DNA of 64,000 nucleotides from NCBI GenBank assembly GCA_013151035.1, contig JAADJB010000008.1, positions 11,466-75,465 of the forward strand, in the 5' to 3' direction. The notes under the pieces were generated by a model. It had not been told where the DNA came from. It did not search any database and was given only the letters and a program-made list of their open reading frames with translations. This DNA is from Gammaproteobacteria bacterium (GTDB lineage Bacteria; Pseudomonadota; Gammaproteobacteria; JAADJB01). Made by a program: the position numbers and the translations under genes. Shown here piece after piece: positions 3,312 through 60,596 of the stretch; positions within the stretch are counted from its first letter, which is position 1, and each line of letters opens with the position of its first letter.

Positions 3312-3434
3312 AGCTGTTGGTCTCTATTCGAGACACGCCGTGAATACATCCATGTAGGCTCGATGCCCGCGTCCATGCGGGCAACGGTCTCGAATAGAGA
3401 TCAACAACTCGTACCTCTTGTGGCTAACTGAAAG
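3312..3434. repeat. structured palindromic repeat (REP-2 family), copy 1
   Basis: Outer inverted repeat tctctattcgagac / gtctcgaatagaga encloses an inner hairpin gcccgcgtccatgcgggc. A second copy lies at 25222-25325. Confidence 0.7.
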
Positions 3435-6836: not shown

Positions 6837-9800
6837 ATGTCTCGTTTTTTATTACAGAAAGCAACACCGAAAGCTTTTATAGCGCTGCTCCTTGTCTTTT
6901 TATTATCTCTGCTATCGGGTTGTGGTGGCGGTTCAGCGTCATCTAATGGCAACAATGCCAGTGTAACGATCAATATTGGCAGCTCTCAAAATGTTGTGTC
7001 GGTTAATTCGGGGCAATGGCTTCTTAATCAAATCATCACTCAGGCTTATGCCGCCTCATTGTTGACGGAATATAGTTATCTATCACGGATCACTCTGGAA
7101 ATATGGGAGGGTGACAATAATATAACGGGTCAAATTAACGAGAGATATAATAAGGGCACTTTTGGTGCGCTTGTCGCTGCTGAGGGCAATGATGCCTTGT
7201 TGTTGCTGGATACGAGTACCCGTATTAGTGTGCCGGCAGATGTGGCGTTGAGATATGTCGTTAAGGCCTTCCAGACGGTGGATGGTGAGTTAGTCCGGTT
7301 TTTTCAGACTGAGGCGAGCTACACGGCAGGGCTTGATAGTGCCGATTTTTCGGGTAATCTCAATATGTCACTTCGTGTGAATATAAACGACTCGATGATC
7401 CAGCAAATGGATACGCCTTCATTGCCCTGTGTTGATGAAGATATTGACCCGATCACTAATGCTGTTGTGGGCGATGGTATTTGTGATACCTATGAAAACC
7501 TGTTTGTGGTTATTGATACTCGAACGGGTTCAGTCACTGAAGGTCAGTATATCCCTGATGTTGATCTGGACGGTATACCTAACGGTATTGATACAGACTC
7601 GGATGGTGATGGTGTTGATGATGCGAATGAGGATGCATCGCAGAATTCAAATAATGGCTATCCAAATTTTGTACATACTAACAATAACCCGACATCGACC
7701 CGTGCCGAGATTACGCTTGCTCAAGGGGCCACGCAAACATTTAGTCCTGATGTCGATGATGATGATGAGGGTGATACCTTTACGGTTATTTCGGTAATAC
7801 AGCCATTACTAGGCGCGGTGTCTATCGTGGGTGGTGCATTGCACTATGAGGCACCACGAGACCAGTCAGGTGATACTCAGTTTAGTTATACGGTGGTAGA
7901 TTATGCTGCACAGACACCGATTAGCGGGATAGCACTCATACACATTACAGCCGCTACGCCACCGAATAGTGCCCCGGACGTTTATTCGCTAGCAAGTCTT
8001 GAAACCAATGAAGATACAGCAATAAGTAATATCGATGTTGTCAGCGAGACTGATGCTCAAGACCCTGATGGTGATAACATCAGTGTCACTGCCTTTGATA
8101 CTGTTTCAAACTGGGGTGGAGTTGTTACCCAAAATCTGGATGGTACGCTGAATTACACACCCGCTGCAAATTACAACGGTAGTGATAGTTTTGCGTTTAC
8201 TATTAGTGATGACTTTGGTGGATCTATAGCAGGGGTGTTCGGCTTCGATGTGTTGGCCGTCAATGATGCGCCTGTTATTAGTGGTGCTCCGGTTATCACT
8301 GTGGAGGAGAATAGTACCTACAGTTTTATGCCAACAGCTAATGACGTTGATGCGGGTGATATCCTGGTCTTTAGTCTCACTAATCAACCTGCCTGGGCAA
8401 GTTTTAACACAATAACAGGTGAGTTGAGTGGTATACCGGCGAGAGATGATGCTGGGGTTACTCTGAATATTGTAATCACTGTAACCGATAATGAGGGTTT
8501 AACCGATTCTCTACCTGCTTTTGATCTAACGGTGACAACAAATAATGTGCCGCCTGTTTATCAATCACAGATCTATGAGCACTTTTCTGGCGGTGAAAAT
8601 CATACGCTGGCACTGAGGAGTGATGGTACGGTTTGGGCGTGGGGGGGCAATAATTATGGTCAACTGGGTAATGGTGATTTTGGTGGCGGCTCCACGCCTG
8701 TTCAGGCACTGGGGCTGAGTAATATTATCGATCTGGCTGCGGGTGACTTTCACTCTGTGGCCTTACGGAGTGATCGAACAGTCTGGCTTTGGGGGCATAA
8801 TAATAATGGTCAACTGGGAAAGGACTCTGCTGAACATGAATCGAGCATACCTTCGCAGCTTGTCGGACTAACAGCGGTTGATGCGGTTGCTGCTGGTCGT
8901 CAGTACACGGTCGCATTGAAAACGGATGGTACCGTCTGGAGTTGGGGTAGAAACAGTTATGGTCAGTTGGGGAACGATTCAACCACTAGCACAGAGATAC
9001 CTCAGCAAGCTGTTGGCTTAAGCAATATTATTGCGATTAGTGCGGGTCGTTACCACGCCCTTGCACTCAAGGGTGATGGCACCGTCTGGGCGTGGGGTAG
9101 AAATAATTATGGCCAACTGGGTGATGGTAGTGATACTCAGAGGACTATACCGGTTCAGGTGAGTGGTTTGACGGGTGTTGTTAGTATTGCGTCGGGTGGC
9201 AGTCATAATATTGCGATGAAATCCGATGGTACGCTGTGGCTGTGGGGCTGGAATCTTTATGGCCAATTGGGTGATGGCACGATGACTGATTCCGCCATAC
9301 CAGTTCAAATTGCAGGTCTAACAGGGGTCGATAGTATGGCTGCCGGTCGTTACCACACCCTTGTTTCCCGATCTGATGGTACGGTCTGGAGTTGGGGCAG
9401 GAACCTTGAAGGTCAGTTAGGGGGTAACACAACGAGTGGTTCAACAAGCCCTGTTTTGATGACATCTCTATCGGATATTACCGCGGTTTCTGCCGGTTAT
9501 AAACATTCGTTGGCACGTGCTTCTGATAACACGCTATGGGCATGGGGACGTAATGGTTATGGTCAATTGGGCGATGGTGCCGACCTGGTTCTGACGACCC
9601 CTCGAACAATGAGTGAGATAAGGTCTGTGTTGGCTATTACCGCTGGACGTAAGCATTCTGCGGCTATTTTAGACGATGGTCGTGTGTGGTCGTGGGGTGA
9701 TGGCGATGATGGCGAGTTGGGTAATGCTGCAACTGTTGATGTCAGTGTGCCAGTGCCGGTGGCAGGGCTTAAATCTGTACGTCAAGTTACATTGGGTATT

Positions 9801-12212
9801 GGGTTTAGTGTGGCCTTGAAGGAAGACGGCACGGTGTGGTCATGGGGCAGTAATGGCTATGGTCGATTAGGGGATGGCACAACCAATGATTCCTCAGTGC
9901 CGGTACAAGTGTCGTCATTGAGTGATGTGTCCGATATATCCGCTGGTCGTTATCACGTGCTTGCCTTGATGTCTGATGGCAGCGTCCAGTCCTGGGGCAG
10001 AAACAGTGATGGTCAGCTGGGTGATGGGTCGAATACACATCGACATACACCGGTACAGGTGGGTGGTTTAAGTGGTGTTATTGCTATTGCAGCGGGTGGT
10101 TATCATTCATTTGCGCTGCGGAATGATGGTACCGTCTGGGCCTGGGGTCGAAACACTAATGGCCAACTGGGTGATAATAGTTTTGTGGATAGCGCTGTGC
10201 CAGTGCAAGTATCCGGGCTCAGTGCTATCACTGCTATTGCGGGTGGTGGTTATCATGGTTTTGCCCTGAAGGATGATGATAGTCTCTGGGTGTGGGGTCG
10301 AAATGATAGGGGGCAGGTGGGTAATGGTTCTCTATCGGATTTGGCTACACCCGTTTCTATCTTGACGAATGTGGCTGATTTTTCTGCTGGGGATTATCAT
10401 TCACTGGCAATCAGGAATGATGGCACGTTATGGTCCTGGGGTTGGAATGATAATGGACAGCTGGGTAATGGTGATACGTTCAATTCTTCCACACCGGTTC
10501 AGATGCAAAACGCGGGTAATGTCATTGCTATTGCCGCGGGTTATTATCATTCCATGATGTTGCGTACTGATGGAACAGTCGCTACATGGGGTTATGATAA
10601 TAATGGGCAATTGGGTACTGGTCGCTCATTGATCTCCACAGTGCCTTTGCGTGTGGCTGATGGTGTGTCGTTGCATGCCTGGGAAGATGTCAGCGCGACC
10701 ACTATTGATGTATTGGGTTATTTTACCGATGCCGATGGTGATCTACCTTCTGTTATTTCAGTCGATGCTAATAGTGCAGAGGGTGGCAGCGTTATTGATA
10801 ATAACGATGGTAGCTTTAACTATACACCTGCGCCTGGTTTTAACGGGATTGATTTCTTTGCTTATACGGTGTCGGATGGGGTTGAATCAGTATCGGTAAC
10901 AGTGACGGTTAATGTGGGTTCGGTTAATGACAGGCCGTTAGCTGTTGATGACAGTTATACCTTTTCCATTGGTGATACAGCGCTTATGGTGGTCGCCAAT
11001 AGCGGTGTCCTGTCGAATGATAGTGATAGTGATTTCGATGCCATGACAGTAATGGTTGATACCTTGCCTGCCAATGGCACACTGGTGCTTAACATTGATG
11101 GTAGCTTTGTTTATACCCCTACCGGCGCACTGACGACCGATAGCTTTACCTATATGGTCAGTGATGGTCAGGGTGGCGTTGATACAGGGCTAGTTAGTAT
11201 TTCGGCAGACTGGATTACCTCTATCCAGTATTTCAATTTCTCGGACCTGTCGGCCTTTACTCTTAATGGTCAGGCATCCACCTTGAATCCGGTTGCGGGT
11301 GAGTCGGTTCTACGTTTGACAGCAACGGGTATTGGAGGCGGGGGCAGTGTATTCCTTAACCAGACTATTCCGCTACAGGATAATAGTGGCTTTAATGCCT
11401 CATTCAGTAGTTTCTTCAAATTCCGTATCAGTAATCCGGCAGGTATCTCTGACAGTGATGGACAGGGTGCCGATGGTCTGGTATTTGTCGTGCAGACGGC
11501 GGCAGATAGTGTCGGTGGTTTAGGCGGAGGTATAGGCTATTCGGGTATTAATAATAGTGTTGGTGTTGAGATTGATACCTACAATAATGGCGGTGGGGAT
11601 GGCAATAGTGGTAACCACGTTGGTATTAACACCAATGGTAATCTGTCCTCCATTGCATTGGCACCGTATCCTGATCGTTTCAATGACGGTGATACGTTCT
11701 TTGCCTGGGTGGATTATCAGGGCTCCAGCCAGAATCTGGAGGTGCGTATTTCAGCCGATGGGGTGCGTCCTGCGCTGGCGATGGTTTCAGCAACGATTGA
11801 TCTGGTAACAACCCTCGGTGTCTCTGATGCCTATATTGGTTTTACCTCAGGCAGTGCAGCGGCTACTAATAATCATGACATTCTGGCTTGGGAGTTTGTT
11901 AATGCCTACGCACCGATACAGGCTATGGGTACGGCACCGGTTGCCGTTGATGATGCCGAGGTAACGGGTCAAGATATTATTCTCGTTACCGGGAATGTCT
12001 TGTTGAATGACACGGATGTTGATGATGATGTGCTTAGTGTCAGTAATTACCAGACGACAAGTGCGCAGGGTGGGACTGTTGTTGATAATGGTGATGGAAC
12101 CTTTGCTTATATGCCTCCACCAGGCTTTTTGGGTGTTGATAATTTCGAATATACCGTGACAGATGACTTTGGTGGTTTTGATGTGGGTGTCGTTGGTATC
12201 AATGTGATGTAG
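6837..12212 (+). CDS. giant surface lipoprotein: TSP3-like Ca-binding repeats, VNDAP cadherin-like modules, 14 RCC1 blades, C-terminal L-type (legume-like) lectin domain
   Basis: Lipobox LLSGC. DxDxDGxxDxxD TSP3-like motifs at aa 240-265. VNDAPV / VNDRPL cadherin-like signatures. Fourteen W(S/A)WGxNxxGQLGxG RCC1 repeats, enough for two 7-blade propellers. The C-terminus (GADGLVFVVQ..VGVEIDTYNN..GNHVGINTNG..AWVDYQ) is a ConA-like lectin fold. Confidence 0.8.
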   Translation: MSRFLLQKATPKAFIALLLVFLLSLLSGCGGGSASSNGNNASVTINIGSSQNVVSVNSGQWLLNQIITQAYAASLLTEYSYLSRITLEIWEGDNNITGQINERYNKGTFGALVAAEGNDALLLLDTSTRISVPADVALRYVVKAFQTVDGELVRFFQTEASYTAGLDSADFSGNLNMSLRVNINDSMIQQMDTPSLPCVDEDIDPITNAVVGDGICDTYENLFVVIDTRTGSVTEGQYIPDVDLDGIPNGIDTDSDGDGVDDANEDASQNSNNGYPNFVHTNNNPTSTRAEITLAQGATQTFSPDVDDDDEGDTFTVISVIQPLLGAVSIVGGALHYEAPRDQSGDTQFSYTVVDYAAQTPISGIALIHITAATPPNSAPDVYSLASLETNEDTAISNIDVVSETDAQDPDGDNISVTAFDTVSNWGGVVTQNLDGTLNYTPAANYNGSDSFAFTISDDFGGSIAGVFGFDVLAVNDAPVISGAPVITVEENSTYSFMPTANDVDAGDILVFSLTNQPAWASFNTITGELSGIPARDDAGVTLNIVITVTDNEGLTDSLPAFDLTVTTNNVPPVYQSQIYEHFSGGENHTLALRSDGTVWAWGGNNYGQLGNGDFGGGSTPVQALGLSNIIDLAAGDFHSVALRSDRTVWLWGHNNNGQLGKDSAEHESSIPSQLVGLTAVDAVAAGRQYTVALKTDGTVWSWGRNSYGQLGNDSTTSTEIPQQAVGLSNIIAISAGRYHALALKGDGTVWAWGRNNYGQLGDGSDTQRTIPVQVSGLTGVVSIASGGSHNIAMKSDGTLWLWGWNLYGQLGDGTMTDSAIPVQIAGLTGVDSMAAGRYHTLVSRSDGTVWSWGRNLEGQLGGNTTSGSTSPVLMTSLSDITAVSAGYKHSLARASDNTLWAWGRNGYGQLGDGADLVLTTPRTMSEIRSVLAITAGRKHSAAILDDGRVWSWGDGDDGELGNAATVDVSVPVPVAGLKSVRQVTLGIGFSVALKEDGTVWSWGSNGYGRLGDGTTNDSSVPVQVSSLSDVSDISAGRYHVLALMSDGSVQSWGRNSDGQLGDGSNTHRHTPVQVGGLSGVIAIAAGGYHSFALRNDGTVWAWGRNTNGQLGDNSFVDSAVPVQVSGLSAITAIAGGGYHGFALKDDDSLWVWGRNDRGQVGNGSLSDLATPVSILTNVADFSAGDYHSLAIRNDGTLWSWGWNDNGQLGNGDTFNSSTPVQMQNAGNVIAIAAGYYHSMMLRTDGTVATWGYDNNGQLGTGRSLISTVPLRVADGVSLHAWEDVSATTIDVLGYFTDADGDLPSVISVDANSAEGGSVIDNNDGSFNYTPAPGFNGIDFFAYTVSDGVESVSVTVTVNVGSVNDRPLAVDDSYTFSIGDTALMVVANSGVLSNDSDSDFDAMTVMVDTLPANGTLVLNIDGSFVYTPTGALTTDSFTYMVSDGQGGVDTGLVSISADWITSIQYFNFSDLSAFTLNGQASTLNPVAGESVLRLTATGIGGGGSVFLNQTIPLQDNSGFNASFSSFFKFRISNPAGISDSDGQGADGLVFVVQTAADSVGGLGGGIGYSGINNSVGVEIDTYNNGGGDGNSGNHVGINTNGNLSSIALAPYPDRFNDGDTFFAWVDYQGSSQNLEVRISADGVRPALAMVSATIDLVTTLGVSDAYIGFTSGSAAATNNHDILAWEFVNAYAPIQAMGTAPVAVDDAEVTGQDIILVTGNVLLNDTDVDDDVLSVSNYQTTSAQGGTVVDNGDGTFAYMPPPGFLGVDNFEYTVTDDFGGFDVGVVGINVM

Positions 12213-14906: not shown

Positions 14907-14912
14907 AATGAT

Positions 14913-15022
14913 GGTGCGTAGTACGCACCCTACCTGGGATGTATATCTGCATTGTGAACCAATGAATATATGGTAGGGTGCGCACTGCGCACCAAATGTT
15001 TTTTTTGATAATGAGAGTGAAT
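14913..15022. repeat. inverted pair of REP elements plus T-tract (likely gyrA terminator)
   Basis: ggtgcgtagtacgcaccctacc (14913-14934) and ggtagggtgcgcactgcgcacc (14972-14993) lie in opposite orientation and are followed by T8. The 3' 50 nt are nearly identical to 47857-47905. Confidence 0.75.
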
Positions 15023-15024
15023 TA

Positions 15025-16107
15025 ATGTCGAAGATTTATAATTTTAGTGCGGGGCCTGCGATGTTGCCGCAGGAAGTTCTGGAGCAGGCACAGAAGGAGT
15101 TGGTTGACTGGAAAGACAGTCATATGTCGGTGATGGAAATGAGCCATCGTGGTAAGGATTTCATGTCGATTGCGGGCCAGGCGGAGAAAGATCTGTGTGA
15201 GCTGATGGCGATCCCTGATAACTATAAGGTGTTATTCCTGCAAGGTGGTGCTAGCAGTCAGTTTGCCATGATTCCACTCAACCTGTTGCGTGGTAAGACT
15301 ACCGCAGATTACTTTAATACCGGTGCGTGGTCGAAGAAGGCGATTGCTGAGGCAAAGCGTTTCTGTGATGTGAATATTGTCGCAAGTGGTGAGGCGGGCA
15401 ATTTCTCCAGTGTGCCGGCACGCGCTGAATGGCAGTTAAACCCGGATGCGGCCTATGTGCATTACACCCCGAATGAAACCATTGGTGGTGTTGAATTTGC
15501 TGATATCCCTGATGTGGGCGATGTGCCGCTGATTGCGGATATGTCTTCGACTATACTTTCTCGCCCAATTGATGTGTCTCGTTTTGGTGTGATCTATGCG
15601 GGTGCGCAGAAGAATGTGGGGCCTGCTGGACTGACTATTGTCATTATCAGGGAAGACCTGATCGGTGGTGCAGCGGAATCGACTCCGGCGATGTTTGATT
15701 ATGCGATTCATGCCAAAAATGATTCGATGTATAACACGCCGCCCACTTATTCCTGGTATCTTTCCGGGCTGGTTTTTCAGTGGTTATTGCGTAATGGTGG
15801 TTTGCAGGCGATGGGTGAGCAGAATCAACGTAAGGCGGATAAATTGTATGCGGCGATTGATGGTTCGGACTTTTACCAGAACCCTGTGGCGATAGAAAAT
15901 CGTTCATGGATGAATGTGCCTTTTACTCTGCCGGATGCTGAGTTGGATAAGGTCTTTCTTGAACAAGCTGCGGCTAAAGGTCTGGTGACATTAAAGGGGC
16001 ATCGTTCGGTGGGTGGTATGCGTGCCAGTATTTATAATGCGATGCCGGAAGAAGGTGTTGATGCCTTGATTTCACTGATGGCTGATTTTAAGTCTCAACA
16101 TAAATAA
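15025..16107 (+). CDS. serC: phosphoserine aminotransferase
   Basis: 360 aa. [15 protein letters not shown] start and full-length SerC pattern. Confidence 0.93.
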
Positions 16108-21698: not shown

Positions 21699-21710
21699 TA
21701 GAATTGTTGT

Positions 21711-21880
21711 GGTGCGCAATGCGCACCCTACGGGATAGGTGTATGCCTCTTGGGTAGGGTGCGTACCACGCACCAGTGTATGCATTCCCACGCAGAGCGT
21801 GGGAACGAGAAAAACAATAATAGTATGCATTCCCACGCAGAGCATGGGAACGAGAAAAGGTAGGGTGCGTACTACGCACC
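21711..21880. repeat. composite repeat block: REP, REP, a 45-bp hairpin unit twice in tandem, REP
   Basis: REPs at 21711-21731, 21753-21774 and 21859-21880. Two near-identical units gtatgcattcccacgcagagc(g/a)tgggaacgagaaaa at 21778-21814 and 21823-21858, each with an internal 6-bp stem cccacg/cgtggg. Confidence 0.8.
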
Positions 21881-25118: not shown

Positions 25119-25221
25119 GTAATGAATCACTGCTGTTCCGTTAAGGGTTTATTTGCTTGCTGTAATCACATGATATTCATCGAAAAAAACATGCCTGGAA
25201 AGTTTGAGCCATGAATCACGT

Positions 25222-25325
25222 TTCTCTACCAGAGACACGCCGTGAAACCATCCATGGTGGCTCCACGCCCGCGTTCATGCGGGCAAGGGTCTCTGATAGA
25301 GAAGCGCAATCCCTGTCTCTTGAGT
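25222..25325. repeat. structured palindromic repeat (REP-2 family), copy 2
   Basis: tctctaccagagac ... gcccgcgttcatgcgggc ... gtctctgatagaga. Same architecture as 3333-3417, with compensatory changes in the outer stem. The tail cctgtctcttgagtt is shared with 34386-34400. Confidence 0.7.
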
Positions 25326-27204: not shown

Positions 27205-27206
27205 AG

Positions 27207-27223
27207 GTGCGCAATGCGCACCA
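27207..27223. repeat. REP core (ggtgcgcaatgcgcacc), solo copy after pyrF
   Basis: Perfect 6-bp palindrome arms around caatg. Lacks the CTACC tail. Confidence 0.6.
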
Positions 27224-28860: not shown

Positions 28861-29094
28861 ATGAAGACAATCACTATAAAGGCTGATAATGAATTTGATG
28901 CCATATTGAATCAGTTATCATCGCGTTTGCATACTACTCGTAGCGGTGTTATTCGAGATGCGGTAAGGAATTATTCAAAATTTCTTGATAGAGAAGCACT
29001 TCGACAACAGATTAGGGCGGCTTCACTTAAAACAAGAGAGCAGGCCGATCAGTCCATTGTGGATTTTGAAGCGGCAAATGGCGATGCTCTTTAA
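28861..29094 (+). CDS. type II antitoxin (ribbon-helix-helix, CopG/MazE-like)
   Basis: 77 aa. Overlaps the downstream MazF/PemK toxin by 17 nt. RHH-like N-terminus. Confidence 0.6.
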   Translation: MKTITIKADNEFDAILNQLSSRLHTTRSGVIRDAVRNYSKFLDREALRQQIRAASLKTREQADQSIVDFEAANGDAL

Positions 29095-29431
29095 ACGGGG
29101 CGCAATATATCTGGCCAACTTTAATCCTTCAAAGGGTACTGAAGCTGGGAAGATTCGTCCCTGTATTGTTATGCAAAGTGACTTGCTTAATGAAGCGAAT
29201 CACCCTAGTACCACCGTGCTTCCCTTAACGACACAATTAATTGATGATGCGGCACCCTTGCGGTATCGAATCAAATCGCGTGATAATCTGAAAATGGATT
29301 CGGATATTATGCTGGATCAGACAAGAACGATTGATAATCGTCGAATGACAAATGATGTCCTAACGACCCTCAGCAAGGTTGAGATGATGGAGGTTGATGT
29401 ATTGTGGCAAACTGTGTTGGGGCTTGATTAA
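29078..29431 (+). CDS. type II toxin, MazF/PemK family endoribonuclease
   Basis: MAMLFKRGAIYLANFNPSKGTEAGKIRPCIVMQSDLLN is the MazF/PemK signature. ATG at 29078 preferred. Confidence 0.75.
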   Translation: MAMLFKRGAIYLANFNPSKGTEAGKIRPCIVMQSDLLNEANHPSTTVLPLTTQLIDDAAPLRYRIKSRDNLKMDSDIMLDQTRTIDNRRMTNDVLTTLSKVEMMEVDVLWQTVLGLD

Positions 29432-29441
29432 GTGAGAATGA

Positions 29442-29511
29442 GGTGCGTCCCCGCCTGATATCACTCCGAAGCGGGGACAGACTTAAGTCTGTCCCCAAGG
29501 CAGTACGCACC
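29442..29511. repeat. REP-like arms (ggtgcgt ... acgcacc) enclosing nested hairpins
   Basis: Inner hairpins tccccgc/gcgggga and gacagactt-aagtctgtc between the REP half-sites. Confidence 0.5.
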
Positions 29512-30461: not shown

Positions 30462-30504
30462 GGTTTTCTTTTTCAAGCCTCGAGCACGTACCCCAAGCCT
30501 TATT

Positions 30505-30619
30505 GGTAGGGTGCGTACTACGCACTAAAGCTATCGGTGCTACCGTGTAAATAAAAGTCCCCCTTATCGGTAGTGCGTACTACGCACCAAAACCGTTGGT
30601 GCGTACTACGCACCCTACC
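30505..30619. repeat. cluster of three REP elements
   Basis: REPs at 30505-30525, 30569-30588 and 30598-30619. Same family as elsewhere in the window. Confidence 0.8.
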
Positions 30620-30697
30620 GATGTCGTTTTGACCCCATCGAGCACGAAATAGTGTAAAATACCCGCCTGTTTTTGAGTTATCTAAAGGTATAACACC

Positions 30698-34385: not shown

Positions 34386-34439
34386 CCTGTCTCTTGAGTT
34401 AGCGAGGCAAGTGTCGCGGTAGGGTGCGTATTACGCACC
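34386..34439. repeat. REP-2 tail motif (cctgtctcttgagtt) plus REP (ggtagggtgcgtattacgcacc)
   Basis: Shares the cctgtctcttgagtt motif with 25311-25325. REP at 34418-34439. Confidence 0.6.
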
Positions 34440-44640: not shown

Positions 44641-45016
44641 GAAGAGTTAGCTGGACAATCGCGCTGTGACTATGATTTAGTGGCAGGGAGGAAAGTCCGG
44701 GCTCCAATGGGCAGGGTGCCAGGTAACGCCTGGGAGGCGAAAGTCTACGGAAAGTGCAGCAGAAAATAAACCGCCAGCCTGTTTTACAGGCGGGTAAGGG
44801 TGAAATGGTGCGGTAAGAGCGCACCGCATGGGTGGTAACATTCCATGGTATGGTAAACCCCACCTGGAGCAAGACCAAATAGGGGGGCAGAGATACCTCG
44901 GTATTTCAGATATGGCCCGTATCGTCCCCGGGTAGGTCGCTTGAGGAATACGGTGACGTATATCCCAGATGAATGATTGTCCTCGACAAAACCCGGCTTA
45001 CAGGCTGGCTCTTCAC
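44641..45016 (+). ncRNA. rnpB: RNase P RNA, bacterial type A (M1 RNA)
   Basis: Near-identity to the E. coli M1 RNA conserved cores (GGAGGAAAGUCCGGGCUCCA, GGGCAGGGUGCCAGGUAACGCCUGGG, AGGGUGAAA, GGUGCGGUAAGAGCGCACC, GGUAAACCCCACCUGGAGCAAG.CCAAAUAGG, ACAAAACCCGGCUUA). The P1 stem is closed by gaagagttagctgg / caggctggctcttc. Confidence 0.92.
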
Positions 45017-47855: not shown

Positions 47856-47905
47856 GTAGGGTGCGCACTGCGCACCAGATGTTTTTTTGATAATGAGAGT
47901 GAAGT
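47856..47905. repeat. REP plus T7 plus conserved 25-nt leader; duplicate of 14972-15022
   Basis: gtagggtgcgcactgcgcaccagatgtttttttgataatgagagtgaa differs from the gyrA-serC copy by only two positions. Preceded by the palindrome atggatgcatccat. Confidence 0.75.
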
Positions 47906-47955
47906 CTGGTCATGGGTAGAACAGTAATGATTACAGGTCAACCGTTAGAGGGGTT

Positions 47956-48798
47956 ATGAAGAAACATCGAAGTAGGCAGGCAGTATCAAAAATCAGATTG
48001 TGGATTGAACGCTTGATCCAGGTGTTGCTGGGAGGCCCCGGCAGTCGTGAAAGTCTGTTATCGATACTGCGTAGCGCACACCATAAAGATTTGTTTGATG
48101 CCGATGCATTAGCCATGATCGAAGGCGTATTGCAGGTATCCGAGATGCAGGTGCGGGATATTATGATTCCCCGATCACAGATGATTGTGGTTTTGCGTGA
48201 TGATGACATCAAGGAGTCTTTGCCACAGATTATTGAATCAGGTCATTCACGTTTTCCAGTGATAGGGGATAGTCGTGACAAGGTGGTGGGAATTTTACTG
48301 GCGAAAGATCTGTTACATGAATATGCAGAGAACGAGACCCGTTTTGATATGCATGATGTTTTGCGTCCTGCTGTTTTTGTACCCGAGAGTAAACGCCTGA
48401 ATGTGTTGTTGAAAGAATTCAGGGTGAGTCGGAACCATATCGCTATTGTGGTGGATGAGTATGGTGGTGTTGCTGGCATGGTGACGATTGAAGATGTGCT
48501 GGAGCAGATTGTTGGTGAGATCGAGGATGAGCATGATGTTGAAGATGTGAACTCAATCTTCAAACATAGTGATAGCAATTACACGCTGAAGGCATTAACC
48601 ACGATTGAAGATTTTAATGCCTATTTCGAGACCGATTTTGTCGATGATGAGTACGACACCATTGCCGGTATGATGATGCGAGAGCTGGGTTGCCTACCTA
48701 AGCGTGGGGATACCGTGACTAAAGGCAAGTATAGCTTTAAGGTGTTACGTGCTGATAATCGTAGAGTGCATGTGGTGCGGTTGACGTTGGGGGTTTGA
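47956..48798 (+). CDS. corC: CBS-domain Mg/Co efflux-associated protein CorC (YbeX)
   Basis: Two CBS domains plus a C-terminal CorC_HlyC domain. Conserved operon position after ybeY. Confidence 0.88.
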   Translation: MKKHRSRQAVSKIRLWIERLIQVLLGGPGSRESLLSILRSAHHKDLFDADALAMIEGVLQVSEMQVRDIMIPRSQMIVVLRDDDIKESLPQIIESGHSRFPVIGDSRDKVVGILLAKDLLHEYAENETRFDMHDVLRPAVFVPESKRLNVLLKEFRVSRNHIAIVVDEYGGVAGMVTIEDVLEQIVGEIEDEHDVEDVNSIFKHSDSNYTLKALTTIEDFNAYFETDFVDDEYDTIAGMMMRELGCLPKRGDTVTKGKYSFKVLRADNRRVHVVRLTLGV

Positions 48799-48987
48799 GT
48801 ATGCGACTGGAAAGACAAGAGATAACGATGACGAGCTCTCAAAATACTTGCTCTATCTGTGGTGAAGGATCTTTGTGCCTACCAAGGGTGGGTATATGAT
48901 GTAGCATGTTTGAATAGCAGATATAAATGCAGGATGAATTAGAGGAAGTATGATATTTGGTTATGTGACTGTTAGTATTAAAAAATT

Positions 48988-49410
48988 ATGATGAAAAATT
49001 GTTTAAACTGTCATTTCTTATGCGATTCATACCGTGAAGAAAATTCAGGGTGTGAATTAAAATTTTCTTTGAAGCAAGAATTGCGTGAATCACTAAAAAA
49101 CAATCCAGTAGGTTATGATAGAGGATGGCATACATTACAATGTCACATGGGAGTATGGGACGAAGGAGTCTCTCCTGTAGCTAAAGGTGAAGATACGATA
49201 CTTTTTTCCCAAGATCGAGGCTATAGTTGTTTTTTTATTCCATATCGTAAATCTATGCTTTTTCCGGCTGCAATTGAAATTCAAAAACGAGAAGAAGAAA
49301 ATAGGTGGCTCAAAAGAACCAGTACTTATACAGTAATAGGTTTATGGTTAGCGGGTATAGGGTTGATACTCAATGCTCTCGTCGCAATATACCAGGCAAT
49401 AAAATGCTAA
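48988..49410 (+). CDS. hypothetical Cys-rich protein with C-terminal TM anchor (140 aa)
   Basis: N-terminal CLNCHFLCD...GCE..LQCH possible metal-binding Cys/His cluster. C-terminal hydrophobic helix. AT-rich. Confidence 0.4.
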   Translation: MMKNCLNCHFLCDSYREENSGCELKFSLKQELRESLKNNPVGYDRGWHTLQCHMGVWDEGVSPVAKGEDTILFSQDRGYSCFFIPYRKSMLFPAAIEIQKREEENRWLKRTSTYTVIGLWLAGIGLILNALVAIYQAIKC

Positions 49411-49519
49411 CAAGAAGTTCCAGGCGGACAATTGACATCGAGGTTCGTTTGGCTACGCCAAGCCTCCCTCTCTGTCAATTCCCGCTGAGCTAGTCGTTAG
49501 GCTACAAAAGGAAAATGAA

Positions 49520-49771
49520 ATGGGTGAAAAAATAGATTATCAAAATATATCTGAAGTCGCTTATACAGATAGCAAGGAAAAAGCAAATGCCTACTTACAA
49601 TTAAGTTGGGTAATGCTTAATATAGAAAGTACGCAATATTCCGAGCATGGCTGGAACACTTCATTTGTTTTTGGTTGGTTAAAAAATAATGGTGAAATAA
49701 AATATCCAGAAAAAAGTAAATGGGAAAAAAATATGGAAGAAGAAAAAGAAGATGAGTCCATACCATTTTAA
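49520..49771 (+). CDS. hypothetical small protein (83 aa)
   Basis: Intact ORF with RBS aaaggaaaatgaaatg. Lys/Glu-rich. No motif. Confidence 0.35.
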   Translation: MGEKIDYQNISEVAYTDSKEKANAYLQLSWVMLNIESTQYSEHGWNTSFVFGWLKNNGEIKYPEKSKWEKNMEEEKEDESIPF

Positions 49772-49893
49772 AATAATTCAAAGATTTAACAAGAAAAATC
49801 AACTTCGCTTGTTCCACACGCCAGTCGTGCAAAAAGTCACGTGCTGCCTATTAAAAATATTATGTTTCTAGTGGGTTTTGACGTAGGTAAATA

Positions 49894-50502
49894 ATGAATA
49901 ACGTAACTTCTGATTTTCAAATAGGTATTAGTTACACAACGGATATACCTGAAGAAATGGTCGCTGGTTTTGAATCAGCAATTGCGATCACAGGTTTAGA
50001 TATAAAATCAGAAGCTAGAGAAGTAGATTCATATGCAGGAGTTGAATGGCTGGTGCCTACAGCAGTAATTGTTTTTATCGGGAAATCATATTTCGACGGG
50101 TTTCTAAAGGAGATGGGGAAGGAACATTACCACCTTTTTAAAAAATATATAGTTACACTGTGGGAACACTTTTTTGGTCAAGATAGAGCCGTTAAATATA
50201 ATCGGGTAAGCACCAAAGGAAAAATATTGTCACTAGATAAATATTCTCCAATATTCTCAATAATGACGGACTTGCTGCCGGGTTACCGAATTAAATATTT
50301 ATTACAAGATGATATATCACAAGCAGAATACCAAAATGCGATCGAGGAATTCTTCTCATTTCTTGAAGAGCTTGATTTTGGGGTGCTAAATAAAAATATA
50401 AAAGGGCAACTTGAAAACGCAAGATCACTTGGTGGTATTATTCTTCTTACATATGAAGAAGGTGCGTTAAAAGTGCTAAATCCAGTATCAAGAAATGAGT
50501 AA
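49894..50502 (+). CDS. hypothetical protein (202 aa)
   Basis: Intact ORF in the AT-rich island. No recognisable motif. Confidence 0.4.
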   Translation: MNNVTSDFQIGISYTTDIPEEMVAGFESAIAITGLDIKSEAREVDSYAGVEWLVPTAVIVFIGKSYFDGFLKEMGKEHYHLFKKYIVTLWEHFFGQDRAVKYNRVSTKGKILSLDKYSPIFSIMTDLLPGYRIKYLLQDDISQAEYQNAIEEFFSFLEELDFGVLNKNIKGQLENARSLGGIILLTYEEGALKVLNPVSRNE

Positions 50503-50616
50503 GATAAAGAAGCATCAAAAATACGTGGATGCGATTGTTTTAGTAATCTTGAAAAGACAATGTCCAGGATGCCATGAAAAATATAACAGCCTGATAATAA
50601 TCTATAAAGGAATACA

Positions 50617-52803
50617 ATGAAGCTGACTGATAACGAGATCAGGGATATCAATCGTCATCTTGAGACGGGTAAGCCGTTGCCGGAGAAGTATCGGTTTTTG
50701 CTGTTCGAGGACAAGAAAGAAGTCGAGCTGGTGTGGAATGGCAAGAGTGGTGATGTCTGTAATGTGGTGTTACCGTTCCAGGTGATTGAGCAGGTGGATG
50801 AGCCTCGGGCGGAAGCGGTTGTTGAATTGCAATCGGATTTGTTTGATATACAGACAGGTCGGCAGGTTACTGGCTGGAACAACAAGTTAATCTGGGGTGA
50901 TAACAAGTTGATCTTGTCGTCCCTGAAAAATGGGCCGTTGCGAGAGGAGATTGAGGCGCAGGGTGGTATTAAGCTGATCTACATTGACCCACCGTTTGAT
51001 GTGGGGGCGGATTTCAGTATGGATATTGAGATCGGTGGTGAGACGCTGACCAAAAAACCCAATGTACTGGAGGAGATTGCCTATCGGGATACCTGGGGCA
51101 AGGGGGCGGATTCATTTATTAGTATGATCTATGAACGGCTAGTGTTGATGCGCGATCTATTGGCAGAGGATGGCAGTATCTATGTGCATTGTGATTGGCG
51201 GGTGAATAGTTATATTCGATTGGTCTTGGATGAGGTGTTTGGGAAGAAATATTTTAGGAATGAGGTTGTTTGGAAAAGGCAATCACCTAGTAGCAGTAAA
51301 GCAAGAGCAAAAAAATTCAGTGCGGATCACGATACAATTTTGGTTTTTTCTAAAAATGAAAGCCCATTATTTCATCCAATATATGGGGAATATCCAAAAG
51401 AAGAAATAGAAAAAAGATTTCGTCAATCTGATCAACGAGGAAGATACAAGGATGCCGAGTTAGCCACATATTCAAAAGAAACATTTGAAAGATTAAAGAA
51501 AGAAGGTAGATTGATTGTTACAAAAGGGGGGAAATATCGATATAAAATTTATCTTCGTGATATCAAAGGTGTATTGATTGATACTTTATGGATAAATATA
51601 CCACCAGTCAATTCTCAGGCAATAGAGTCTACTGGTTATGCAACCCAAAAACCCGAAGCTCTGTTAGAACGCATCATCAAAGCCTCCTCTAATGAAGGCG
51701 ACATCATTGCTGATTTCTTTTGTGGCTCTGGTACCACTGCCGCCGTTGCCGAAAAGCTGGGTCGCAAATGGATCGTCTCCGATCTCGGAAAATTCGCCAT
51801 CCATACCACCCGTAAGCGTATGATCGGCGTACAGCGTCAACTAAAGGCTGAGGACAAAAGCTGGCGCGCTTTCGAGATTCTTAATCTGGGTAAATATGAA
51901 CGCCAGCACTATATTGGCATTAATCCTGATCTGCGCGAAGAGGAAAAGCAACAACAACTGGAGGCCAAAGAGAAGGATTTCCTGAATCTTATCCTCCATG
52001 CCTATCGTGCTGAGGCAGTAAATCAGTTTAATAGCTTTCAGGGTAAGAAGGCAGGCAGACTGGTGGCAGTGGGGCCGGTTAATCTGCCGGTGACGCGTTT
52101 GTTTGTCGAAGAGGTTATTCTGGAGTGTCGACAGAAGCATATTACCAAGGTGGATATCCTGGGTTTTGAGTTTGAGATGGGGCTGTTTCCCAATATTCAG
52201 GAAGAGGCGAAGGGTAAGGGAATCGATCTTGCGATGAAATACATCCCACGTGATGTATTTGATAAGCGGGCAATCGAGAAGAACCAGGTGGTATTCCATG
52301 ATGTGTCGTTTATTGAGGTGAAGCCGCACCTGGGTAAGGGCAAGAATAAGCACCAGATTGCCATTGAACTAACTGATTTCTCAGTATTTTATTCCCAGGA
52401 TGCAGCAAGTGCCGATACCAGCCTGAAAAACAGGAAATCGAAGGTGATTGTGGATCAGGGTCTGGTGGTCAAGATCAGCAAGGATAAGGATGGTATTATC
52501 ACTCGTGAGGTCTTGACCAAGGTATGGACGGACTGGATTGATTACTGGTCGGTGGATTTTGATTTTGAATCCAAGCAAGAGATTCTTCGGGTCAGGAATG
52601 AGGAGAGTGGTGAGACCGAGGCAGTCTGGACGGGTGATTATGTGTTTGAGAATGAGTGGCAATCCTTCCGTACCAAAAAAGACCGCTCGCTGGAACTGAA
52701 AAGTGCGTTTATGGAGTGTATGCCGGGTCGTCGGAAGGTGGCTGTGAAGGTGGTGGATATCTTTGGTAATGATACGATGAAGATTATTGAGGTGACAATA
52801 TGA
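50617..52803 (+). CDS. mod: Type III restriction-modification Mod subunit (beta-class N6-adenine DNA methyltransferase)
   Basis: Characteristic Type III Mod N-terminus (..[32 protein letters not shown]). Motif IV DPPF (LIYIDPPFD) precedes motif I FCGSGTT, the beta-class order. The region between them is the expected target-recognition domain. Confidence 0.8.
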
Positions 52804-53696
52804 CAGCGCTAAAGACTCCTAAATTCTATCGACAGCGTTTTTTGTTGTTATTGTTGGAAATGGCAGGAGGTTGCTTGTCGAAAATGGATTTTCAGAAATT
52901 ACTATTTTTGTCACAAAAAGAAGCAGGGTTTTCGTATTACGATTTTGTTCCCTACCACTATGGCTGTTATTCTTTTCAGGCACAGTCTGATATTGAGTTG
53001 CTGGGATCATTGGGTTGGTTGGAGGAGAATTCAAAGAGTATTAATTTACTTGCGAAACCAGGTGATTGTTTAAAAAGTGGTGAGCTGGATGTGATTAATC
53101 AATTTACAAAACAATTTAAAGAATACCGTGGTCGAAAACTGGTTACTTATGTATATGAACGCTATCCTTATTATGCTACGCGTAGCAAGATTGCTACTGA
53201 GATACTGGATGAAATATCATACAGGAAGGTTAGTGCAGAAAGAAATAAGTTAATTGGTAAAGATAAAGTCATTTATACCATTGGTTATGAGGGGCTTTCG
53301 TTTGAGTCTTATGTTAATCAATTGCTTAAAAGTGATGTGCGCTTATTATGTGATGTTCGTAAAAATCCGTTAAGTCGGAAGTTTGGTTTTTCCAAGGGTG
53401 TCCTTAGCCGGCTACTGCCAAAATTGGGTGTTAATTATTTACACATACCTGATCTTGGAATACGGTCGGATATGCGTCAGGAATTAAATTCGGAAGAGGA
53501 TTACAAAAAACTTTTCAGGGCTTATGTGCGGACATTGCCTCAAAAGATGGGGAGTTTGCAATTACTGAAAAGTTTACTCAATGAGCATCAAAGAATTGCA
53601 CTGACCTGTTATGAAAAGGAACATCATTCTTGTCACCGTCACTGTGTTACTGACTATTTGGAGAATAAGAGTAATATCAGGGTGCGTCATATATGA
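52800..53696 (+). CDS. two-domain protein: N-terminal Panacea-like (DUF4065/SocA-like) domain fused to C-terminal DUF488
   Basis: ATGA overlap with mod. N-terminal [40 protein letters not shown] resembles the Panacea consensus (KLqKLlY...GPy). C-terminal [36 protein letters not shown] matches the DUF488 signature (TIGhs..DVR..P.S...GI.Y.h...LG). Confidence 0.5.
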
Positions 53697-54523
53697 GCAG
53701 GATGCGAAAAGTATTTATAACTGTTAAAACATACCCAACACTTTCAAAAAAATATGCCGAACTGGTTTGTACAGCAGGTATCCTTGATGATGGAAGTTGG
53801 GTTCGTATTTATCCATTGCCATTTAGAAAGCTGGATTATGAAAAAAGATACAAAAAATATCAATGGATGGAATTGCCGCTTATTAAAAATGAGAGTGATC
53901 CTCGTCCAGAAAGTTACAGGGTAATTGATATTGATCAAGTAAAAATAGTCGGTGATCCTGTAGATACAAAACAGGGATGGCTCGAACGAAAAAATATAGT
54001 CTTTGGCAAGAATAAGACTTATTTAGATTTGGATGATCTTATTGAGAAGGCTAGTAATAATGAGCTTTCAATGGCTGTTTTCAAGCCAACTAAAATACTG
54101 GATTTGGTGATAGAAGAAGTTGACCGTGAATGGAGTAGTGAAAGTTTGGATCTTCTTAAAGCCAAAGCTAAGCAATTATCCTTGTTTCAGACAGAAGAGG
54201 AGTTAAAAAAAGAATTTTTAATTGTTGATAAATTGCCGTACAAGTTTTCATATCGATTTGAGGATTGCAAGGGAAAGCAAAGTAAATTGATGATTGAAGA
54301 CTGGGAAATAGGCATGTTGTACTGGAATTGTTTGAAACAGACAGGAAATAATGAAAGTGAAGCACTAGAACTGGTGCGAAAAAAATATATCGATGAGTTT
54401 TCTAATAAGGATTTGTTTTTATTTTTGGGTACAACCAGGCAATTCCATGGTTGGGCTAAAAATCCGTTTGTAATTATCGGGGTATTTTACCCTCCGATTG
54501 ATAATCAGATTTCTTTTTTATAG
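53693..54523 (+). CDS. hypothetical protein (276 aa) translationally coupled between the DUF488 fusion gene and res
   Basis: ATGA overlap upstream. Ends 11 nt before the res RBS. No recognisable domain. Confidence 0.45.
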   Translation: MSRMRKVFITVKTYPTLSKKYAELVCTAGILDDGSWVRIYPLPFRKLDYEKRYKKYQWMELPLIKNESDPRPESYRVIDIDQVKIVGDPVDTKQGWLERKNIVFGKNKTYLDLDDLIEKASNNELSMAVFKPTKILDLVIEEVDREWSSESLDLLKAKAKQLSLFQTEEELKKEFLIVDKLPYKFSYRFEDCKGKQSKLMIEDWEIGMLYWNCLKQTGNNESEALELVRKKYIDEFSNKDLFLFLGTTRQFHGWAKNPFVIIGVFYPPIDNQISFL

Positions 54524-54534
54524 GGAGGTCAATA

Positions 54535-57219
54535 ATGGCTCTGCATCCTGATTTTCCGGATTCGCCCCATGTTATTCTTGAACCGGATATTCGCTGGTTT
54601 CCTGCTGATGAAGCCCTGCGTGAATCCTCTTATGAGAAATTATTACCACCACTGGTACATAAGTTACGCAGGAAGGTTCAGTTATGGCGTGAGACAGGTT
54701 ATGAGGGTGCGTCCCCTACTAGCATTCATCTTTTGAACTGGTGGTTTGAGCGTGAGCATCTAATGCCAAAGTCCGATGGTTCTATGTCCACGTTTCAGTA
54801 TTACTTTGCCCAACGCGAGGCAGTGGAAACGGTGGTTTATCTTTATGATGTGGTCAAGGTAAAGGATAAATATGATCTGATCCGGTTTGATTCATCCGGT
54901 GCGGTATCAGCGGGTATGTTTGATGAGGCATGGCGGCGCTTTGTAATCAAGATGGCTACAGGTTCGGGTAAGACCAAGGTAATGAGTTTGATCCTCGCAT
55001 GGAGTTATTTTCATAAGATGTATGAAGATGATTCTGAACTGGCGCGTAACTTTCTGTTGATTACTCCGAATATCATTGTGCTGGATCGTATTCGTACGGA
55101 TTTTGATGGCCTGCGTATCTTCTTCGAAGACCCTGTGCTGCCCGATAATGGTTATGAAGGTTACAACTGGCGTGATGATTTTCAACTGACCCTGCATATT
55201 CAGGATGAGGTCAATATTACCCGAAAGATTGGCAATATCTTCCTAACCAATATTCATCGGGTTTATTCAGGTAATGATATCGAACCATCGGCGGATGATG
55301 ACGATACCATGGATTACTTTTTAGGTAAGAGGCCGGTTGGAAAGACCACTGATTCAAAGGTTGATCTGGGGGATATTGTCAGGGATATTGATGAGCTGGT
55401 CGTGCTGAATGATGAGGCACATCATATCCATGACAGTCGTTTAGCCTGGTTTAAGTCAATTGAGGATATTCATCATCGTTTGCAGCATAAAGATCGTTCT
55501 CTTTCACTGCAAATTGATGTGACTGCAACACCCAAGCACAATAATGGGGCTATCTTTGTGCAGACAGTATCTGATTATCCCTTGGTTGAGGCCATTGCGC
55601 AGAATGTGGTGAAACACCCTGTGTTGCCTGATTCTGCCAGCCGTACTAAATTGTCTGAGCGACAAAGCTCGCGTTATACCGAGAAATACGCAGATTATTT
55701 GCATCTGGGGGTTGAGGAATGGCGTAAGGCATACGGTGAGCATAAAAAACTGGAGAAGAAGGCTATCCTCTTTGTGATGACAGATGACACCAAAAATTGT
55801 GATGATGTTGCTGAGTATCTTGAGACTACCTATCCTGAGCTAAAAGATGCAGTGCTGGTCATTCATACCAGGAATAATGGTGAGGTCAGCGAGGCTGCTA
55901 GTGGCAAGAAAAAAGAGGAGCTGGAACTATTACGCAAACAGTCCAATGCGATTGATAGCTGGGAGAGTCCCTACAAGGCTATCGTTTCCGTGCTGATGTT
56001 GAAAGAGGGTTGGGATGTCAGGAATGTCACCACCATTGTGGGTCTGCGTGCTTATGGAGCCAAAAGCAATATTCTGCCAGAGCAGACCTTGGGACGCGGG
56101 CTGCGCAGAATGTATCCCGGCAATGAGGTGGAAGAATATGTCAGTGTCGTCGGTACCGATGCCTTTATGGACTTTGTTGAGTCTATTCAGTCTGAAGGTG
56201 TGGAACTTGAGCATAAGGCTATGGGTGAGGGCACTAAACCAAAAACACCGATTATTGTTGAGGTGGATAATGAAAATACCAGTAAGGATATTGAACTGCT
56301 TGATATTGAGATTCCGGTATTAACAGCAAGAATCTATCGAGAGTACAAAAACCTTGAGGATCTGGATGTCAGTTGCTTTGACTACAAGAAGGTGAAATAT
56401 AGATCCTTTAGTGAAGAAGATATGCGAGAGATTGTGTTCAAGTATGTGACCAGTAATGAGATCAGTCATACGACCTTGCTGGATTCCTGTGTGGTGACGG
56501 ATTATCGCTCTGTTATTGGTTATTTTGCTCAAATTATCATGAAGGATTTACGCCTGGTCAGTGGTTATGATGCGTTATATGGAAGGGTGAAATCCTTTAT
56601 TCAGAATGACTTGTTCGAAACAGAGATTGATCTTGATAGTATGAACACCCTGCGTAATCTATCGGAGTTAGAGGCGAGCAAAACACTGGTTGAGACCTTT
56701 AAGAAGCAGATTAATGCGCTTACGGTTCGAGATAAAGGTGATGCGGAGATCAAGGATTATATCAAGTTAAGGAAGACCCGCCCATTTGTGGTTAAGGAAC
56801 AGGGCTACCTTATTCCTAACAAAAGTATCTTTAACAAGATTATCGGTGATAGTCATCTGGAGCTGCAATTTGCCGCCTTTCTTGAAGGTTGTGAAGATAT
56901 TATTTCTTACGTAAAAAACTATCTGGCTGTACATTTTCAGATTGATTACGTTAATGCCGATGGCAATATTTCAAATTATTATCCTGACTTTATTGTTAAG
57001 TGCTCTTCAAGCTCAGTAATTATTGTAGAAACCAAGGGGCTTGAGGATCTTGATGTACCCCTTAAGATGGAGCGATTACGCGAGTGGTGTGTCGATGTTA
57101 ACAAAGCACAATCGGTTATTCATTATGATTATGTATTTGTTGATGAGGAAGGTTTTAATCAATATCAGCCTAAAACCTTTCAGACATTGATGTCAGGTTT
57201 CAGGGGATATAAGGCTTAA
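54535..57219 (+). CDS. res: Type III restriction enzyme Res subunit (SF2 helicase plus C-terminal PD-(D/E)xK nuclease)
   Basis: RBS gggagg. Helicase motif I MATGSGKTKV, motif II LNDEAHHI, motif VI QTLGRGLRR. C-terminal nuclease motif YYPDF...IIVETKG. Confidence 0.8.
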   Translation: MALHPDFPDSPHVILEPDIRWFPADEALRESSYEKLLPPLVHKLRRKVQLWRETGYEGASPTSIHLLNWWFEREHLMPKSDGSMSTFQYYFAQREAVETVVYLYDVVKVKDKYDLIRFDSSGAVSAGMFDEAWRRFVIKMATGSGKTKVMSLILAWSYFHKMYEDDSELARNFLLITPNIIVLDRIRTDFDGLRIFFEDPVLPDNGYEGYNWRDDFQLTLHIQDEVNITRKIGNIFLTNIHRVYSGNDIEPSADDDDTMDYFLGKRPVGKTTDSKVDLGDIVRDIDELVVLNDEAHHIHDSRLAWFKSIEDIHHRLQHKDRSLSLQIDVTATPKHNNGAIFVQTVSDYPLVEAIAQNVVKHPVLPDSASRTKLSERQSSRYTEKYADYLHLGVEEWRKAYGEHKKLEKKAILFVMTDDTKNCDDVAEYLETTYPELKDAVLVIHTRNNGEVSEAASGKKKEELELLRKQSNAIDSWESPYKAIVSVLMLKEGWDVRNVTTIVGLRAYGAKSNILPEQTLGRGLRRMYPGNEVEEYVSVVGTDAFMDFVESIQSEGVELEHKAMGEGTKPKTPIIVEVDNENTSKDIELLDIEIPVLTARIYREYKNLEDLDVSCFDYKKVKYRSFSEEDMREIVFKYVTSNEISHTTLLDSCVVTDYRSVIGYFAQIIMKDLRLVSGYDALYGRVKSFIQNDLFETEIDLDSMNTLRNLSELEASKTLVETFKKQINALTVRDKGDAEIKDYIKLRKTRPFVVKEQGYLIPNKSIFNKIIGDSHLELQFAAFLEGCEDIISYVKNYLAVHFQIDYVNADGNISNYYPDFIVKCSSSSVIIVETKGLEDLDVPLKMERLREWCVDVNKAQSVIHYDYVFVDEEGFNQYQPKTFQTLMSGFRGYKA

Positions 57220-57285
57220 TATCGGTATTTTGTATTTATGTAGCAATATGCTACAATATAGGTCGTATTGTAGCGAGGTGTACTG

Positions 57286-58933: not shown

Positions 58934-59020
58934 TGGGATATCCCCTTGATTATTCGTTTTTTATATGAGATCCATCTTCCAGTAAAAGTCTAGCTGATAT
59001 CGATTGTTTGTCAATTTCGC

Positions 59021-60568: not shown

Positions 60569-60574
60569 CAGACG

Positions 60575-60596
60575 GTAGGGTGTGTACCACGCACCA
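60575..60596. repeat. REP element (ggtagggtgtgtaccacgcacc)
   Basis: Same family. Lies between the convergent lnt and the YbeL-like gene. Confidence 0.7.

Follow-up and report, generated by a model that had tools for sequence, protein, structure and literature searches.

The window, that is, the whole stretch of DNA analysed, spans 64 kb of a contig 148,345 nt long, from the metagenome-assembled genome of a 'Gammaproteobacteria bacterium', and every window search reported here covers these 64 kb of its genome. It carries the housekeeping genes gyrA, serC, aroA, cmk, pyrF, galU, folD, leuD, leuB, ybeY, corC and lnt, with about 47 of 50 genes on the + strand. The G+C content was 45.7%, and the GC skew was unusually strong (+0.18 overall and +0.13 to +0.24 in every 4-kb bin). 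A class A RNase P RNA (44643-45016, 324.9 bits) was the only Rfam family above its gathering score in the window. A gene at 6837-12212 encodes a 1791-aa protein with at least 13 RCC1 repeats (150-nt period in the DNA) and cadherin-like, Ig-like and legume-lectin domains. Between corC and lnt, which are adjacent in the relative L006, about 10 kb of low G+C (40-41%) at 48900-58950 encode a DNA methylase (50617-52803), a DUF488 protein, a ResIII helicase/endonuclease (54535-57219) and a ParD-like/zeta-toxin pair; the segment looks like an inserted restriction-modification and toxin-antitoxin island. A ~90-nt repeat, unrelated to the family described below, was present at 3315-3406 and 25219-25306 (78% identical, 14-nt inverted ends TCTCTATTCGAGAC / GTCTCGAATAGAGA). 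The fold is a long branched hairpin (-53 and -50 kcal/mol, z -6.7 and -5.5), and two of its stem pairs are changed on both sides between the copies. Both copies lie ~30-50 nt upstream of unrelated genes, an MFS transporter gene and lapB, and neither gave an Rfam match above threshold.

The intergenic regions of the window carry a family of short palindromes. With the pattern GGTGCG-N5-CGCACC and at most 1 mismatch, we found 12 matches against 0.06 expected from shuffles, with cores at 14913, 14977, 21711, 21758, 21864, 27206, 30510, 30572, 30598, 34423, 47860 and 60579, a density of about 1 per 5 kb. All 12 were intergenic and spread over 7 intergenic regions, in a window of which 10.5% is intergenic (P ~1e-7 even with counting per locus), and matches with 2-3 mismatches within genes were at about chance level. 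Ten of the 12 carry an asymmetric GTAG/CTAC head (GGTAG or its complement CTACC), by which each of these copies is oriented; the exceptions are the headless copy at 27206 and the degenerate copy at 30566. The consensus is GGTAG-GGTGCG-YAYYR-CGCACC, and its 17-nt palindrome forms a stem of 6-8 bp with hairpin energies of -8 to -9 kcal/mol as DNA and about -13 kcal/mol as RNA. The headed single REPs, 5 of 5, run in the gene direction on the + strand, and reverse REPs are confined to pairs or clusters (Table 1). An earlier note on this DNA had described an intergenic palindromic REP family of at least 13 copies; its list names the same copies, with coordinates that take in the GGTAG head, and both the family and its placement within the window were borne out. 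The thirteenth, which it had called a degenerate copy at 29442, is indeed a REP, but it is split at the loop rather than degenerate, with GGTGCG at 29442-29447 and TACGCACC at 29504-29511. The 56-nt insert between the halves, with its perfect palindrome, is a nested insertion of another small element, and the split REP follows directly on a MazF/PemK-like toxin gene (28985-29431).

Table 1 REP copies and shared units in the window (positions in the 64-kb stretch)
Feature	Coordinates	Strand	Description
REP	14913..14934	-	GGTGCGTAGTACGCACC+CTACC; 6 nt past gyrA stop; 5' arm of REPIN-like doublet
REP	14972..14993	+	GGTAG+GGTGCGCACTGCGCACC, CACTG loop; 3' arm of the doublet
Shared 49-nt unit, serC copy	14973..15021	+	GTAG-REP, AAATG, T8, GATAATGAGAGTGAA; probable donor
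REP	21711..21731	-	CAATG loop, CTAC head; 12 nt past aroA stop; doublet arm
REP	21753..21774	+	TACCA loop; second arm of doublet 21710-21775
Single REP	21859..21880	+	TACTA loop; 12 nt before cmk ATG; last piece of BIME-like mosaic
Headless REP palindrome	27206..27222	.	CAATG loop; 1 nt past pyrF stop codon
Split REP	29442..29511	.	Loop interrupted by 56-nt insert with own palindromes GGGGACAGACTT/AAGTCTGTCCCC
REP, 1 mismatch	30505..30526	+	Outer left arm of three-REP cluster
Degenerate REP	30566..30588	+	GGTAG-TGCG...; inside three-REP cluster
REP	30598..30619	-	Outer right arm of cluster; pairs with 30505
Single REP	34418..34439	+	TATTA loop; between leuD and leuB
Shared 48-nt unit, corC copy	47856..47903	+	Single GTAG-REP, AGATG, T7, GATAATGAGAGTGAA; probable derived copy
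Single REP	60574..60595	+	GGTGTG stem variant (G-U wobble on + strand); 5 nt past lnt stop, between convergent genes

Gammaproteobacteria commonly harbour REP families. A REP is defined as a palindrome of 20-50 nt preceded by GTAG, and group 3 REPs have short perfect palindromes (PMC8266576); a near-identical architecture, GTAGGGTGGGCTTcAGCCCACC, is listed for Haemophilus influenzae (PMC2817692). The repeats of the window show the GC-rich stem-loop palindrome, the GTAG at its 5' foot and the multicopy intergenic distribution. With the group 3 REPs and REPtrons of Stenotrophomonas maltophilia, Marinomonas MWYL1, Pseudomonas and H. influenzae they share the GTAG head, the perfect GC-rich palindrome, the extragenic position, the inverted doublets and, in other contigs, an identical REP beside a gene matching the RAYT model, but they differ in the stem GGTGCG/CGCACC, which was not found in the searchable literature. 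The window repeats are a canonical RAYT-type REP family with a new stem sequence on a known architecture, and the label of the earlier note is fully supported by the head, the short perfect palindrome, the extragenic position, the inverted doublets and the RAYT genes beside the same sequence elsewhere.

No RAYT was found in the window, either by a motif screen or by phmmer with a RAYT against all six frames (no match at E <1), as the earlier reading had it. This absence is uninformative, because RAYTs are normally single-copy (PMC8266576). In a public metagenome scan with GTAGGGTGCG-YANYR-CGCACC, the exact REP 21-mer occurred in at least 120 stretches, none of those listed overlapping the window. 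Among the matches listed, these stretches had G+C contents of 34-73%, and inverted pairs and tandem arrays were common. A 21-mer common to contigs of 34-73% G+C is a wider distribution than the usual view of REPs as species-specific. Genes were called as RAYTs with the NCBIfam model REP_Tyr_transpos, NF047646 (REP-associated tyrosine transposase), at a cut-off of 80 bits, and among the matches listed three contigs, L074, L013 and L033, had a gene passing the model near or overlapping the REP. The RAYT gene of L074 (174 aa, 199.9 bits) has REPs on both sides, one of them 43 nt upstream, and is followed by a threefold 97-nt array in which this REP is paired with a second REP type. The REP of L013 overlaps the beginning of the RAYT reading frame (188.1 bits), and that of L033 lies ~560 nt upstream of a RAYT gene scoring 95.1 bits; L030 contains a partial Y1 transposase. 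Regular tandem REP arrays were seen at L040 4556-4960, L017 9339-9685 and L074 4140-4420, with periods of ~33, 47 and 97 nt, the L074 array alternating this REP with the second type, GGTGGGCAATGCCCACC-CTAC. The second type (GGTGGG-N5-CCCACC) was absent from the window.

Several REPs of the window are arranged as inverted pairs. Folding as DNA showed three loci to be REPIN/BIME-like composite hairpins of two inverted REPs: 14912-14994 (z -7.5 as DNA; -49.7 kcal/mol and z -6.7 as RNA), 21710-21775 (z -4.1 as DNA) and 30502-30622 (-34.9 kcal/mol and z -7.0 as DNA). These correspond to the pairs 14913/14972, 21711/21753 and 30505/30598, in agreement with the inverted pairs noticed earlier. In the aroA-cmk spacer, three REPs make up a mosaic with two tandem 45-nt units that have a different hairpin; the 45-nt units (21778-21858, 97% identical) lie between REP copies, each with the hairpin TTCCCACGC-AGA-GCGTGGGAA. 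The REP cluster at 30.5 kb is flanked by a direct repeat of 9 nt, TCGAGCACG, which was considered as a target duplication and set aside, as the chance of such a repeat in the spacer is ~0.1 on a rough estimate. The three inverted pairs, each forming one long hairpin, resemble the REPINs of Pseudomonas fluorescens SBW25 (Bertels and Rainey 2011), and doublet units of 74-121 nt likewise recur in unrelated contexts in other metagenome contigs.

Two of the REPs share more than the palindrome. The stretch before serC (49 nt) and that before corC (48 nt) both read GTAG-GGTGCGCACTGCGCACC-A(A/G)ATG-T(8/7)-GATAATGAGAGTGAA, with the same CACTG loop, one A/G substitution and T8 in the former against T7 in the latter. 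Identity begins on the left at the GTAG head. Upstream of it, a match of GAATAT..ATG with a 10-nt palindromic insert allowed was examined as possible homology and dismissed as not significant (p ~0.12). On the right, the identity extends 27-28 nt beyond the hairpin into non-REP DNA, and past GTGAA the two loci are unrelated. The serC unit, whose REP forms the 3' arm of a doublet, stops 3 nt short of the serC ATG (15025) and places GAGAG 7 nt before that ATG, a good ribosome-binding distance. The corC unit, with a lone REP, runs from 22 nt past the ybeY stop to 52 nt short of the corC ATG (47956), and corC has its own AGAGGGG further downstream of the unit. The earlier note had reported about 50 nt of REP, T run and leader shared directly 5' of both start codons; the sharing is confirmed apart from one substitution and one T indel, but the placement holds for serC and not for corC, which lies 52 nt away.

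A search of the window with up to 3 mismatches allowed gave no third copy of the leader, and neither, with up to 4 allowed, did the 120 REP loci with 163 REPs among the matches listed. The CACTG loop was tried as a unique marker of the copied lineage and rejected, as it is the commonest loop elsewhere (54 of 163 among the matches listed). Against the GTDB species genomes the 21-nt leader gave only two matches, both in uncultured Rikenellaceae genomes and taken to be chance. Within the 64-kb window, the 120 listed REP loci and the GTDB species genomes, the 50-nt identity stood as the only such pair, a point that the earlier note had itself raised, and further copies of the unit could lie elsewhere in the genome. 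None of the other ten REP copies of the window shares this flank. The earlier suggestion that REPs are mobilised here as larger units thus survives in part: for this pair a REP was copied with extra DNA, but the other ten share no flank and for the REPs of the window in general the suggestion found no support.

To place the two loci in a wider context, we compared them with relatives. The closest on record are distant (83% and 78% identity for SerC, NOX08028.1; 87% and 70% for CorC, NOX08060.1), and no REP was found in their syntenic DNA at either locus. The gyrA-serC spacer is 118 nt here versus 33 nt in L005 and 60 nt in L003, and the 194-nt aroA-cmk spacer has no counterpart in L003, where the genes overlap. 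By this comparison, the REPs of the window are recent arrivals, and they explain several spacers that are 60-200 nt longer than those of the relatives in a compact co-directional gene string. In L005, the nearest relative, G-TTTTTT-GATAGTG stands right after the gyrA stop with no REP, a 12/13 match to the leader at the same place; the match is modestly significant, 150 of 5000 shuffles reaching its score (p ~0.03). One of the closest relatives has TTTTTTGATAGTG before serC, a hint at a flank that originated at serC and was then carried to corC. Neither REP nor leader was present in the ybeY-corC spacers of L006 and L007; that of L006 has a weak T-rich TTTTTAATAA after ybeY. L006 was rejected as a picture of the ancestral ybeY-corC spacer, being unreliable with the corC start apparently deleted and TTTTTAATAA present. 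In L006, the closest corC relative, about 25 codons at the beginning of corC and some of the spacer before it are apparently missing (688-810), and the gene is called from an internal ATG (227 aa).

From these observations we infer, with somewhat better than even confidence in the explanation as a whole, that the 49/48-nt identity records one recent copying event that took a REP together with 27-28 nt of its 3' DNA. As parts of the same explanation, and by analogy with known systems, the REPs would spread on single-stranded DNA by a single-copy RAYT/TnpA-REP encoded elsewhere in the genome; the flank would most likely be the native serC 5' leader, with its T run and ribosome-binding site; and the leader copied to corC would be a passenger with no selected role. 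Judged from the L005 match, the ribosome-binding position and the doublet context, serC is the likely donor and corC the recipient.

A different account of the same identity is that the REP, the T run and GATAATGAGAGTGAA together form a composite repeat subfamily with many copies in the genome, like the conserved extra-REP motifs of E. coli BIMEs. Two of the 12 window REPs carry the tail, both with a CACTG loop, and the genome was searched over ~64 kb only. There are also precedents, as BIMEs join REPs to conserved linker and flank motifs (PMC3333891) and REPINs are repeated with their flanks in tandem clusters (PMC3116915). The window resembles the E. coli BIMEs (REP y/z; motifs L, S, s, l, r) in its REP mosaics, alternating orientation and other short motifs, but the E. 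coli REPs are longer, imperfect, bulged palindromes, and the extra piece in the window is apparently host leader DNA seen just twice. The tail was found on 0 of 163 REPs of this class at 120 other loci among the matches listed, it reaches to within 3 nt of the serC ATG and provides the ribosome-binding site of that gene, and the related T6-GATAGTG occupies the same place in a relative that has no REP. On this evidence we regard a composite subfamily as unlikely.

The earlier note had also offered that the shared leader carries a regulatory function, and in its fullest form this would make the leader a selected element co-regulating serC and corC as a mobile promoter, a terminator or attenuator, or a small upstream frame. 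A lenient terminator scan flagged both hairpin-plus-T-run sites against 0.1 expected, but five bases (AAAUG/AGAUG) separate the stem from U8/U7 at the two units, and the resemblance to a terminator, as read from the sequence, appears marginal. The published working criterion for putative mobile promoters is identity at 46 or more of 50 bases upstream of unrelated genes (PMC3575422), and the pair reaches it. It resembles the cases of Matus-Garcia et al. 2012 in having ~50 near-identical nt upstream of two unrelated genes, but differs from them in that no promoter is recognisable and the identity is anchored on a REP. A sigma-70 or mobile promoter (-35/-10 with 16-18 nt spacing) was tried and rejected: GATAAT is -10-like, but there is no -35 element and no scan match at either unit. 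The ATG of the unit opens the frame MRVN (15011-15025), whose stop overlaps the serC ATG (TAATG), and downstream of the corC unit a 15-codon frame, MGRTVMITGQPLEGL (47912-47959), ends with ATGA on the corC start; these small frames are unlike between the loci and may be chance. The distance from unit to start also differs (3 versus 52 nt), the ybeY-corC spacer of the relatives lacks the leader, and Rfam gave just sub-threshold matches resembling miRNA hairpins around both units. The near-perfect identity includes the REP itself, which speaks for recency and not for conservation. With no promoter, no Rfam family, and GAGAG at ribosome-binding distance from the serC ATG only, the proposed regulatory function was not upheld, and co-regulation by a selected leader seems improbable.

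The single copying event could also have run the other way, from the corC spacer to serC, or both copies could derive from a third master copy elsewhere. The T-rich TTTTTAATAA after ybeY in L006 would fit such a course, and the L005 evidence for serC to corC reaches just p ~0.03. Under either version, however, the insert must have landed 3 nt from the serC ATG and supplied a correctly spaced ribosome-binding site by chance, and must also have fitted the distance of the existing reverse REP for a well-paired doublet, and we consider this course very improbable. It is scarcely credible that the duplication arose in assembly, through a false join at a repeat in a contig from a metagenome-assembled genome, since independent relatives likewise have gyrA next to serC and ybeY next to corC, and the two copies differ by a substitution and an indel.

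We return to the preferred explanation, a single recent copying of REP and flank from serC to corC, and to how it could have come about. TnpA-REP is able in vitro to cut at C|T sites flanking the REP on both sides and within linkers, and to join the REP to different linker pieces (diversification model of Ton-Hoang 2012; PMC3333891). The E. coli enzyme cuts within CTAC on the complementary strand, at the position of the GTAG head (PMC3333891), and cleavage at CT or CA, on the 5' or the 3' side of the REP, and at variable sites in the linker gives products with REP plus linker (PMC8266576). Such variable cutting and joining in linkers could plausibly yield a REP with its flank. The CT dinucleotide expected for RAYT cleavage was absent from the top strand at both junctions; C|T occurs only on the bottom strand of the right junction at corC, the recipient, and may be chance. 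Repair-associated copying primed from the REP is a possible route as well. The HUH transposases of IS91/ISCR elements and Helitrons carry 3' DNA along by one-ended read-through; as in the pair described here, the copied segment has one end at the recognition hairpin and the other in adjacent host DNA, and there rolling-circle replication moves kilobases. To our knowledge, nothing comparable to such flank capture has been shown for RAYTs. We put forward only tentatively, and as a doubtful proposition, that in this pair we see the natural footprint of a single REP mobilised by a RAYT, with one end fixed at GTAG, an ectopic end 27-28 nt downstream and host DNA carried along.

In the REPIN model single REPs are immobile remnants (PMC3116915), and the doublet is the unit that is copied. 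The one event visible here differs from SBW25 REPINs in this respect, as a single REP with 27-28 nt of non-REP flank was copied and no doublet. A REP-plus-flank copy agrees with the variable cutting near the hairpin seen in vitro and disagrees with the view that only doublets move.

In E. coli, REPs bring about partial termination and protect upstream mRNA (bioRxiv 10.64898/2026.03.23.713779). By analogy, the REP hairpins in the 3' UTRs of gyrA, aroA, pyrF, leuD, ybeY and lnt would probably attenuate read-through and protect the upstream mRNA, and the hairpin beside a T run would act as a weak terminator-like module at both shared sites. The REPs of this organism would probably modulate read-through between its housekeeping genes. 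The REP-plus-flank duplication is a curiosity of moderate interest to those who study the spread of REPs. As a young copy with its left edge at GTAG and its right edge in host DNA, it is a small natural experiment on the unit of mobilisation. If the RAYT-driven reading is true, the pair would offer a concrete donor and recipient for testing the choice of RAYT cleavage sites, and would show that the spread of REPs can move host regulatory sequence, here a T run and a ribosome-binding site, between genes.
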